Virus record (IMG/VR): IMGVR_UViG_3300033076_000152
Coordinates: 1 to 29,068 of that record
Source: a virus
Taxonomy: Duplodnaviria > Caudoviricetes
DNA: 29,068 nucleotides
Reading direction: 5' to 3' (one strand)
The notes below the pieces were generated by a model, which saw only the letters and a program-made list of their open reading frames with translations, had not been told where the DNA came from and made no database searches. Each line of letters starts with the position of its first letter. Position 1 is the stretch's first letter. A program made the position numbers and the translations under genes. Of the stretch, positions 4,542 to 29,068 are shown one piece after another.

Positions 4542-5162
4542 TTATTTAAAGTTTGTTAGATATTGCTTCATAGCGTTTCGGTTAGCTTCTTTGTCCGTGT
4601 CGGTTGACATTCTGTTACTATCTCCCATTGATTTAAATTGAGCGTGTGCTTCCTCTTTTCCGTTTATGTATGCTAAATGCCTTTCATCACGATATTTTTC
4701 AAACATCTCAAAAAATGTTGGCATATCCATTCTATCATAAACTTTTCCGTATTTGTACTTTACCATACCATCTAAAAATAAAATTACATCTTGAATAGCT
4801 AACTGGTCGCTTTCGGATTCTGTTATTATTTCATAAGCAAGATTTGCAATTTGTTCAGAGTTCATACCAACCCTTAAATTGAAATTATTTAATGCCTTAG
4901 TTATTGCAACGCTTAAAACTCCAGCTATTTTATCAGTTCCGTACATTTTTGCTAATGCTGGTAATCTTTCACTAAGTGGTACTAATTCAATTACTTTCAT
5001 TGGCAATGCTTCCCCTTTTTCTTTATATCTGCACATCTCATTGTGCAATTCTCCTTTACTGCCTTTCACTAGCAAGTTTAATAACTGCTTGGAGTGACTC
5101 CCATTCGGTAACTTTTGGACTAATCCTTGATTGACTTGTTGTATTTCTTGTGATGATTTCAT
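4542..5162 (-). CDS. Putative replication accessory protein (helicase loader/inhibitor position)
   Basis: Directly follows and overlaps the initiator gene, as lambda P follows O. MNSEQIANLAYEII...DVILFL...KYGKVYDRMD resembles a Bacteroidota phage family recalled as DUF6633-like. Confidence 0.5.
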   Translation of the reverse strand: MKSSQEIQQVNQGLVQKLPNGSHSKQLLNLLVKGSKGELHNEMCRYKEKGEALPMKVIELVPLSERLPALAKMYGTDKIAGVLSVAITKALNNFNLRVGMNSEQIANLAYEIITESESDQLAIQDVILFLDGMVKYKYGKVYDRMDMPTFFEMFEKYRDERHLAYINGKEEAHAQFKSMGDSNRMSTDTDKEANRNAMKQYLTNFK

Positions 5163-5739
5163 CGTTGAAGCATTTTTGGTTTAAATATGTTGTTGGATGT
5201 TTTCTAAAAGTTTTATCTGGAGTTGACTCAACATATGCTTGAACTGTTTGTAAAGCTAAATCCTTTTCTTGTTCGGTCAAACTATTCCAAGACTTTTTTG
5301 CCTTTTCTTTTGATTTTTTGTAATCGTACCATAACCACCAATCTTCAAACTTTGCATCCAGTATTTCAGTTTTAGTTTTAGTTCTATTTTTAGTTATAGT
5401 TTCAGTTTCAGTTTCCATATGCTTAGCATATGCTTTGCTAGTGCTATTGTTTTTAAGTGATTTAGCGTTATTTCTCCTTGATTCTGAGAACTTTTGACGT
5501 CTAACAGTCTCATTGTACATTCTTTCGTTATAAAAAAACTCTCCATCTTTTACAAATTTGCTCCAAATGTCAACGTCATATGCTTTGCATATGCTTAGCA
5601 TATCCTTGTTAGTTAATTTGCCTTTTTGATGCTGCAAACAAAGTAAACGTATATACATCCCAACTTGTTCATTTGTCATTGTAAAAGTGCCACTCAAAAA
5701 ATCGCTTGTATAAAAAAGCACGGCTGGGTCTTTACTCAT
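5056..5739 (-). CDS. Replication initiator (DUF1376/YdaU-like N-terminus, O-like organisation)
   Basis: PAVLFYTSDFLSGTFTMTNEQVGMYIRLLCLQHQKG N-terminus, low-complexity ETETET linker, and C-terminal FEDWW..Y..KKSKEKAKKSW...HPTTYLNQ domain; internal iterons. Confidence 0.85.
   Translation of the reverse strand: MSKDPAVLFYTSDFLSGTFTMTNEQVGMYIRLLCLQHQKGKLTNKDMLSICKAYDVDIWSKFVKDGEFFYNERMYNETVRRQKFSESRRNNAKSLKNNSTSKAYAKHMETETETITKNRTKTKTEILDAKFEDWWLWYDYKKSKEKAKKSWNSLTEQEKDLALQTVQAYVESTPDKTFRKHPTTYLNQKCFNDEIITRNTTSQSRISPKVTEWESLQAVIKLASERQ
5361..5609. repeat. Iteron-like 11-bp repeats and AT-rich 6-mer run inside the initiator gene (probable origin)
   Basis: CATATGCTT(A/T)G at 5416, 5427, 5577 and 5588, degenerate at 5599; adjacent TTTCAG/TTTTAG run at about 5361-5415. 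Confidence 0.75.
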
Positions 5740-5740
5740 A

Positions 5741-5832
5741 AAATAAAAAAAGGGCTTCAGACTAAACAGGTAATGCGACTACCTGCCAATCTTCCACCCT
5801 AATAAGTTTATATTGATATGTCGCATATATCA
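5741..5832 (-). ncRNA. Structured cis-regulatory leader with complementary loops and U-tract
   Basis: Hairpin TGATAT-ATGCGAC-ATATCA; hairpin CAGGTA-GTCGCAT-TACCTG inside a longer stem closed by AGGG/CCCT and followed by a T-run. The two loops are exact reverse complements. Confidence 0.7.
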
Positions 5833-5835
5833 GTA

Positions 5836-5843
5836 CAAAAATA
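5836..5843 (-). promoter_or_regulatory. Bacteroidota -7 promoter element (TATTTTTG)
   Basis: TAnnTTTG match 3 nt upstream of the first leader hairpin. Confidence 0.65.
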
Positions 5844-6035
5844 CTAAACTATCCTATAACTTGCAAATGTTTTGCCGTCTTTAGTTACAATTTTAGTTGC
5901 AATATTTAAACCTTCTTTGCGTAGGTCATTTACTCTTGCAGCTAATCTAAAGCAGCCAAATTTATTTAATGCTTGTAAAGGAGTTATTGTTTTACCTTGC
6001 TCTAAATAACTTTTTATTTGTTGATTTTGTGTCAT
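5844..6035 (-). CDS. Small winged helix-turn-helix protein (HTH_39-like)
   Basis: TQNQQIKSYLEQGKTITPLQALNKFGCFRLAARVNDLRKEGLNI.T...ASY pattern. Confidence 0.8.
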   Translation of the reverse strand: MTQNQQIKSYLEQGKTITPLQALNKFGCFRLAARVNDLRKEGLNIATKIVTKDGKTFASYRIV

Positions 6036-7437: not shown

Positions 7438-7776
7438 TCAAATAATATTTGAAAGTTTTTTTAGGTCTTCAAGCATATCGGTTTCGTAGTGTAATTCTCG
7501 TACTGTTTTAATGGTCTTTAAAGCGTGGATAATACTTGCGTGGTCACGATTAAATATATTGCCAATAGTTACCAAAGTAAATTCGGTCTTTTGCTTAATA
7601 AAGTAAATAGATATAAATCTTGCTTTTATTAATCGCCTTTCACGACATTTGCCAAGTATTTCATCCGTAGTTAATCCGTAGAATTTAGCTACTTTGCTGA
7701 TTATGCTTTGTGCCGCTTGGGTTTGTTGTTTTATGTCCAATCTTTCCTTCATTGCAGGTTTGGTCCAATAACTCAT
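7438..7776 (-). CDS. Stand-alone DnaA C-terminal (domain IV) HTH protein
   Basis: IISKVAKFYGLTTDEILGKCRERRLIKARFISIY...TLVTIGNIFNRDHASIIHA matches the DnaA domain IV signature (IGxxFxRDHxTVxHA). Confidence 0.88.
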   Translation of the reverse strand: MSYWTKPAMKERLDIKQQTQAAQSIISKVAKFYGLTTDEILGKCRERRLIKARFISIYFIKQKTEFTLVTIGNIFNRDHASIIHALKTIKTVRELHYETDMLEDLKKLSNII

Positions 7777-8982: not shown

Positions 8983-9014
8983 AACTTTTGGTTTTATTGG
9001 TTTGTTTGATAAAT

Positions 9015-9045
9015 CAAAGCTATATCAACATAACTTACTAACAAA
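9015..9045 (-). promoter_or_regulatory. Full Bacteroidota sigma-A-type promoter (early)
   Basis: TTTG (9045-9042), N19, TAGCTTTG (9022-9015), matching the -33/-7 consensus TTTG-N19-21-TAnnTTTG. Confidence 0.8.
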
Positions 9046-28939: not shown

Positions 28940-28955
28940 ATATGTACATTTATGT

Positions 28956-28963
28956 CAAAGTTA
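28956..28963 (-). promoter_or_regulatory. Bacteroidota -7 promoter element (TAACTTTG) for the portal operon
   Basis: Intergenic TAnnTTTG 16 nt upstream of the portal ATG. Confidence 0.65.
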
Positions 28964-28974
28964 GTTATTTTATA

Positions 28975-29068
28975 CTAAAAAACTGAAACTTGAAAACGAG
29001 GCGTATATTCAAACACCATTCGCATAGCCAAACAATCGCTAAAGTCTGGAGAACGACCTATCAATGCT
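28975..29068 (-). CDS. terL: Terminase large subunit, C-terminal end (joins to 1217..1)
   Basis: In frame across the junction: ...KDKV-K-ALIGRSPDFSDCLAMRMVFEYTPRFQVSVF*; GRSPDxxD is the last nuclease motif. Confidence 0.93.
   Translation of the reverse strand, partial: ALIGRSPDFSDCLAMRMVFEYTPRFQVSVF

Follow-up and report, generated by a model that had tools for sequence, protein, structure and literature searches.

In the attenuator of pT181 repC, an alternative antiterminator helix takes up an arm of the terminator. In the leader of IncI1/IncB repZ, according to the available text of PMC8053102, a loop-mediated pseudoknot acts on translation, and its action needs a leader peptide and the Inc antisense RNA. 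In the immunity system of phage P4 (CI RNA, seqA/seqC), pairing of the RNA leader of a replication gene is tied to premature termination, and a processed third element is antisense in the lysogen (PMC4825925, accessible part). For the guanidine-IV riboswitch (GGAM-1 or mepA motif), two kissing hairpins are proposed to stretch a linker so that the outer pairs of the terminator stay unformed, and highly conserved loop nucleotides are needed (Lenkeit et al., PMC7736828, accessible part); a single-molecule study of this riboswitch reports, in the portion available, that the linker becomes shorter as P2 elongates and that this elongation is in competition with kissing (PMC11611296). Finally, the motif DNAVirus_187 is presented in the accessible material of Fremin et al. 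2023 (PMC10690425) as an element of 49 nt with 122 sequences, 105 of them from freshwater, assigned to Caudovirales with a Bacteroidetes host for 2, located no more than 25 nt from DUF1376 (54) and DUF4373 (36) genes, having 3 covarying pairs and the RNIE verdict 'no'; the word 'kissing' is absent from the main text of that paper.

The locus compared with these systems here lies in a 29,068-base virus record, analysed over its full length (the window), with an estimated completeness of 99%. The window is a tailed phage of Bacteroidota type, and its gene set (portal, head protease, NinG, methylase, NUMOD4/HNH, endolysin) lies entirely on the minus strand. We infer a Bacteroidota host because TAnnTTTG promoter boxes are present and because the same leader occurs on two short Bacteroidota MAG contigs (L237 and L567), the sole carriers among the genome contigs scanned. 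Comparison with the INPHARED cultured phages gave no DNA matches and, for proteins, only distant ones.

The leader RNA, of ~90 nt, is encoded on the minus strand ahead of a DNA-replication gene (Table 1). Both hairpins, the U-run and the initiator ATG are present on that strand at the sites given in an earlier note on this DNA, and sequence comparison confirms that the two 7-nt loops are exact reverse complements. The promoter element that the same note had placed ahead of hairpin 1 is found as a box, with one amendment to the transcript: because the box is placed at −12 to −5, the position stated for the Bacteroidota −7 box in the available text of PMC9723704, the leader +1 is predicted at G5831, so that the first T of hairpin 1 would be untranscribed and P1 would have 5 bp. 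Loop L1 is closed by a U-A pair. The 227-aa reading frame behind the leader matches the phrog_270 replication initiation protein (E 1.7e-13) and Pfam DUF1376 (E 7e-4, under the curated cut-off). The stop codon of the upstream HTH_39 gene adjoins the −7 box, and read-through from upstream would therefore meet the leader too.

Table 1. Features of the leader and its flanking genes in the window
Feature	Position	Strand	Detail
Promoter-like site, Bacteroidota sigma-A type	5836..5867	-	TTTG 5867-5864, 20-nt spacer, TATTTTTG 5843-5836
Hairpin P1	5814..5832	-	TGATAT 5832-5827, loop L1 ATGCGAC 5826-5820, ATATCA 5819-5814
Single-stranded linker	5801..5813	-	ends in AACUUAUU at 5808-5801
Hairpin P2, terminator-like	5751..5800	-	P2a 5 bp, 3x3 internal loop, middle stem, P2c 6 bp, L2
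P2 5' arm		-	AGGGT 5800-5796, AGATT 5792-5788, CAGGTA 5785-5780
Loop L2	5779-5773	-	GTCGCAT (GUCGCAU)
P2 3' arm		-	TACCTG 5772-5767, AGTCT 5763-5759, GCCCT 5755-5751
U-rich tail, predicted termination tract	5740..5750	-	U6-A-U4; the 11 nt preceding the start codon
Replication initiator, 227 aa, lambda O/DnaD-like, DUF1376-like N-terminus	5056..5739	-	first gene under the leader
Upstream HTH_39 gene	5844..6035	-	Pfam HTH_39 E 1.4e-12

The fold z-score against shuffled sequences is −2.96 for the minus strand and −1.37 for the plus strand, and a kissing-hairpin detector run over the window reports one site only, the leader. Kissing pairs in which both stems have at least 6 bp occur in 0/30 Markov-simulated windows, in which pairs with stems of at least 4 bp arise 0.6 times per window.

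Loop complementarity, the loss of which in homologs had been set out beforehand as the refuting result, is kept in homologous leaders. We collected 69 initiator loci from IMG/VR, 56 of which have a start codon and upstream DNA; the linker lies directly upstream in 39 of these 56, and 38 of the 39 have complementary loops. In the single exception (L029, 909-1018) P2 is retained, but the promoter and P1's 5' half are missing, either by natural deletion or as an assembly artefact; its leader is joined to a truncated HTH gene. In L011, L037 and L039 the leader is shifted upstream by one gene. Pattern scans gave 169 matches (some contigs double-counted) and 63 distinct cores, a set that is itself selected for complementarity. 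With loop 1 set free (N7), complementarity is found in 108/108 matches that have the promoter box and the U-run with ATG, and in 5 of the remaining 14, which lack the full architecture (9 are not complementary). With P1 left free and the pattern anchored on linker, loop 2 ends and tail, 240 loci were obtained, 71 of which have a real P2 hairpin and a U-run, and all 71 have a complementary upstream loop.

Eight loop pairs occur (loop 1: GTAGGAT, GTCGCAT, GTCGTAT, GTCGTTT, GTCGGAT, GTCAGAT, GTGAGAT, ATGCGAC), one of them dominant (72 of 122 matches). In a model-made alignment of 63 distinct rows, changes on both sides are seen in 22/25 pairs, including 4/5 in P1, 6/6 in P2c, 5/5 in P2a and 6/7 in the kiss, counts that overstate the number of independent events, the rows being related and the alignment biased towards the stems of the model. 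The loop-loop covariation asked for in the earlier note is thus seen as compensatory change in all but one of the kissing pairs. The aligned loops are 94.7% paired, vs. 37-46% for slid controls. The loop-closing pairs are U-A in 63/63 and A-U in 61/63, and because such pairs cannot lengthen the helix the kiss ends at 7 bp; loop positions U2 and A6 are invariant.

In the window's class, each loop is the reverse complement of its counterpart in the L005 class (L005:1398-1496), and the basal stem is common to both classes. The difference has the look of two hairpin-loop microinversions; no single-inversion intermediate between the two classes was seen. One further sequence (L079:1143-1247) has a kiss-like GCCGCAT/ATGCGGC pair at the spacing of the family and lacks a clear promoter, terminator and start codon; it is counted among the 63 distinct sequences, was excluded from alignments A2 and A3, gives no model match, and is either a distant member or a chance occurrence. 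Complementary loops or 5' seeds were also noted in initiator leaders of Bacteroidota MAGs (L288:1340-1500, L284:1370-1500, L275:1360-1500, L258:590-730, L277:775-906), with complementary words of 8, 6, 7 and 12 nt in L288, L284, L275 and L277, respectively, none of which matches the model; L288, L284 and L275 are single leaders ahead of DUF1376-like genes. A loose pattern run over genome contigs gave chance-level matches; of its 120 loci, 100 were searched with the model, and none matched.

The order of parts is the same across the family: promoter-like box, P1, linker of 14-16 nt, P2 of 47-50 nt, U-run and AUG. A TAnnTTTG box stands ahead of P1 in 62/63 distinct leaders, with the predicted +1 4-6 nt before loop 1, and TTG at −33 is present in only 31/61. 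With a pattern that does not require the linker, AACTTATT is found in 94/103 kissing leaders and variants of it in the other 9. The distance from the end of P1 to L2 is 34-36 nt in 68/68 distinct sequences, which suggests an intramolecular (cis) geometry, and the 5' arm of P2 (linker end to L2) has 20 or 21 nt in 63/63. In most classes P2 carries 3x3 and 4x4 internal loops, the latter consisting of U-G-A-A opposite G-(G/A)-A and swapped for wobble pairs in the window's class. Within 8 nt past the stem there are 6-7 U in 62/62 leaders, with an interrupted U-run in some members (L102, L153, L086, L182), and the stem-to-ATG distance is 8-12 nt in 62/62. In the window, the 12 nt before the initiator ATG are 92% U, vs. 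at most 50% at 43 other listed starts; the other starts are A-rich upstream, whereas the leader tail is U-rich, much like those of two plain terminators (9338-9316 and 9265-9244). From its composition, the leader U-run is most readily interpreted as a termination tract. A simple terminator scan of the window did not list P2, the stem of which is interrupted.

The genes behind the leader are of several kinds. Besides at least five initiator types, among them DUF1376-like, Lin1244_N (which we take to be the former DUF4373), HTH_36 and two others, it precedes methylase, HNH and GIY-YIG nuclease genes. The earlier note's proposal that the leader controls the replication initiator would therefore apply to its position in the window, where it sits before that gene, and not to the family, which includes methylases, HNH/GIY-YIG nucleases and a copy between terL and portal. 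Initiators 87-88% identical to that of the window carry different loop pairs, and contigs aligned to the window have near-identical flanks in which the joint 5748-5834 is filled by 81 other letters. The GTGAGAT class stands ahead of a NUMOD4-HNH gene in 5/5 records examined (L568:7430-8002, L569:5580-6152, L570-L572), with terL upstream in the 3 scanned for it and a portal homolog downstream in four; in two of these records (L568, L569) the initiator is preceded by a second leader, which bears a different loop pair. The leader/HNH insert is absent from the terL-portal junction of the window (28940-29068). P2 of the terL-portal copy is the weakest (−10.6 kcal/mol); by its position this copy must pass late transcription, which we count for a read-through model. 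Judged by this distribution, the leader is a portable expression module that in the window heads the initiator operon, and the reuse of the leader by an HNH cassette is a case of modular movement of a phage regulatory RNA.

Comparison with the systems described above changes the parallel first drawn for this locus. The defining parts of the IncI and pT181 systems (antisense promoter, conserved leader peptide, classical antiterminator helix) were not found here as conserved features, and, judged by predicted topology, the guanidine-IV riboswitch is the closer match. In both, as far as the accessible guanidine-IV texts describe it, the loop of a 5' hairpin kisses the loop of a terminator hairpin (here on comparative evidence), read-through is proposed to arise by linker stretching, and the element occurs before several non-homologous genes. 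However, there is no sequence match between the two, and the kissing bases vary here in 6/7 pairs and are inverted in one class. Moreover, guanidine-IV responds to guanidine and precedes guanidine export genes (mepA, sugE) of Firmicutes, whereas the phage leader has no known ligand and precedes initiators, methylase and nucleases of Bacteroidota-type phages. With respect to pT181 repC, the phage leader differs in having no conserved antiterminator helix. With respect to IncI1/IncB repZ as presented in the text available, it conserves neither a leader peptide nor, as far as promoter boxes tell, an antisense RNA, and its kissing partner sits in the terminator loop. With respect to phage P4, likewise as presented in the text available, it has two sites only, joined by a strict 7-bp loop-loop pairing; a third complementary element (seqB-like) was sought, and the own 7-mer is not repeated in G002, G003 and G004, while the extra copies in G000, G001 and G005 lie inside ORFs and have stems no longer than 3 bp.

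DNAVirus_187, matched solely by length, habitat and downstream genes as given in the accessible material, is probably the P2 half of the leader: its 49 nt fits the 47-50-nt P2 but is too short for both leader hairpins. A search of the window against Rfam 15 gave 0 matches at gathering and 2 chance-level matches (E 3.1 and 5.5); nine variant loci gave 0 at E<=1, and nine further loci gave tRNA only. The leader is undescribed in the literature searched, in which coverage of subscription papers was thin. The suggestion of an undescribed structured RNA class is supported only as far as a covarying 5'-leader element with a terminator-like hairpin has no Rfam match. We conclude from the comparative evidence that this is a real kissing-loop terminator leader, uncatalogued or only half-catalogued, which appears to gate replication genes in abundant uncultured freshwater phages without a recognised repressor.

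For the function of the leader, the reading that we favour, and regard as somewhat probable, is a cis attenuator in which L1-L2 pairing would keep the base of the terminator open and so permit read-through into the replication gene. Transcription would start at G5831, and P1 would be the first element to fold and would present L1, with which L2, emerging ~59 nt on, would pair. P2 would then zip from its tip towards the U-run, and with the kiss in place the linker of 14-16 nt would have to reach across ~20 bp of P2 as well as P1 and the kiss itself, so that the strained 5-bp P2a would tend to stay open and polymerase would read through; if the kiss came too late, P2a would close and an RNA of ~88 nt would be released. 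By default this would be a ligand-free kinetic valve that limits initiator dose and is set by polymerase speed, Mg2+ and temperature, and a closed P2a 8-12 nt from the AUG would also dampen translation of read-through RNA. In predicted folding of the growing transcript, the L1:L2 helix is the minimum-free-energy structure at lengths of 59-65 nt, and the terminator takes its place once 81 nt is reached. Leader-peptide candidates (uORFs from P1) run from 1 to >50 codons in mixed frames across classes, with none conserved; the best duplex that P1 plus linker can make with the 3' arm of P2 has energies between −4 and −14 kcal/mol, with no value conserved; and an opposite-strand TAnnTTTG box is present in 13/63 leaders at scattered places. 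Since antiterminator helix, leader peptide and antisense promoter are thus not conserved, the kiss is the only conserved alternative contact left. Closing P2a gains −6.4 to −14.1 kcal/mol, and a worm-like-chain estimate, a rough one on assumed parameters, gives an extra strain, for a P2a closed under the kiss, of 2.3-8.2 kcal/mol when the bend is 60 degrees and 1.2-3.5 kcal/mol when it is 90 degrees, with higher values for a straight stack; the terms are of one order, and the estimate does not fix the sign. The strain at a 90-degree bend being small, the full terminator could form with the kiss in place, in which case the kiss might not work against termination. Nor does a purely geometric model account for the conserved linker AACUUAUU. 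Freely varying loops combined with the guanidine-IV topology make the family a natural, probably ligand-free test of the proposed mechanism in which the terminator is opened by a kiss that stretches the linker, and nature supplies eight orthogonal loop pairs for such tests.

The conserved linker bears on a different reading, in which a ligand or a phage or host protein would bind the linker and the loop-closing bases and steady the kiss, much as guanidine does in the guanidine-IV riboswitch. Retention of the linker in nine-tenths of leaders though their stems are wholly replaced, invariance of the U-A closing pair and of loop U2/A6, and a tandem G-A-type internal loop in most classes all speak for such an input; yet linker variants occur, the bases at the centre of the kiss are free to vary and the window's class has the whole 7-mer inverted, whereas guanidine-IV needs conserved loops, and the downstream genes share no metabolite theme. 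We consider an input-gated switch unlikely. The exchange of leader cassettes between near-identical flanks, the two records having two copies with different loops, and the precedent of the P4 CI RNA (PMC4825925, accessible part) favour an action in trans, whereby L2 of released ~88-nt leaders would bind L1 of new transcripts, block the cis kiss and force termination. Against this, kissing pairs vary less than the apical stem (78/441 vs. 118/378 changed cells), the dominance of one loop code is not that of a diversifying address, the own 7-mer has no further copy in three relatives, and the constant spacing indicates cis geometry; in addition, integrase or repressor matches number 0 among 64 ORFs scanned (non-structural ORFs of G001 and G003 and 8 window ORFs), a set drawn mostly from those two complete relatives. 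Self-sensing in trans is therefore quite improbable in our estimation; if true, it would count genomes per cell or exclude phages of the same loop code. Equally doubtful is an elaboration in which the 88-nt product of a portable valve would bind the 5' loop of new transcripts through a 7-letter code, count genomes and shut replication at high copy number or upon superinfection by the same code, the valve being swapped as a cassette and borrowed by homing endonucleases; if true, this would constitute protein-free density sensing in apparently non-integrating phages.

Two other readings dispense with switching of termination by the kiss. If the U-run were no terminator, P2a beside the AUG could set how ribosomes load and be either opened or locked by the kiss. 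The uniform stem-to-ATG distance is consistent with such translational control, as are the RNIE verdict for DNAVirus_187 (PMC10690425, accessible part) and initiation independent of Shine-Dalgarno in Bacteroidota (PMC9723704, available text), but the 92% U tail differs from the A-rich sequence before other starts and is like the tails of two plain terminators, and no helix that conservedly pairs with the AUG region was found across leaders. We hold translation-only control to be very unlikely. Alternatively, the kiss might merely compact and stabilise either a leaky terminator or a short RNA produced by termination, without switching, the function residing in the small RNA; its own promoter-like box, P1 at +1 and a terminator make the leader a self-contained unit, and a 90-degree bend accommodates the kiss together with a full P2. 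That the leader always lies 8-12 nt before a start codon and moves with unrelated genes, as a cis element would, and that a second 7-nt target site is absent from G002-G004, makes a purely stabilising kiss highly improbable.

Several further candidates were rejected. DNA-level recombination sites (a 7-bp core with inverted arms) are disfavoured in that the two sites do not share the same arms and, in the window's class, one strand gains from wobble pairs (−23.5 vs. −15.8 kcal/mol), while over all classes the sense strand is favoured in only 38/62. A reading of the linker, taken backwards, as an antisense −7 box was rejected, the required TTTG being present in just 6/63. Autoregulation by the initiator is unlikely, with unrelated proteins following the same leader class. 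HK022 put is a processive antiterminator; a put-like function was rejected, Rho aside, on finding that from the leader down to position 1 only a single terminator, a weak one, is predicted on the minus strand. A replication origin or primer was rejected because the iteron-like repeats lie within the initiator gene and one leader copy lies in a late operon.

The repeats within the initiator gene are palindromic and form clusters at 5412-5446 and 5573-5607 (a 24-nt family with spacing 11, 150, 11), one of which codes for a conserved AYAKHM motif; they are possibly iterons of a lambda-like origin. A stand-alone protein with a DnaA C-terminal HTH is encoded at 7438-7776 and is kept upstream in the relatives G001 and G003, as is the HTH_39 protein, and the two proteins are candidate regulators of the leader promoter. 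Further upstream, the two plain terminators noted above lie in tandem on the minus strand and are followed by a Bacteroidota-type promoter-like site at ~9000-9044 (minus strand); terminators and promoter-like site together (9338 to ~9000) likely mark the start of an early operon. A TAnnTTTG-type box lies at ~9374-9367, just ahead of the first tandem terminator.
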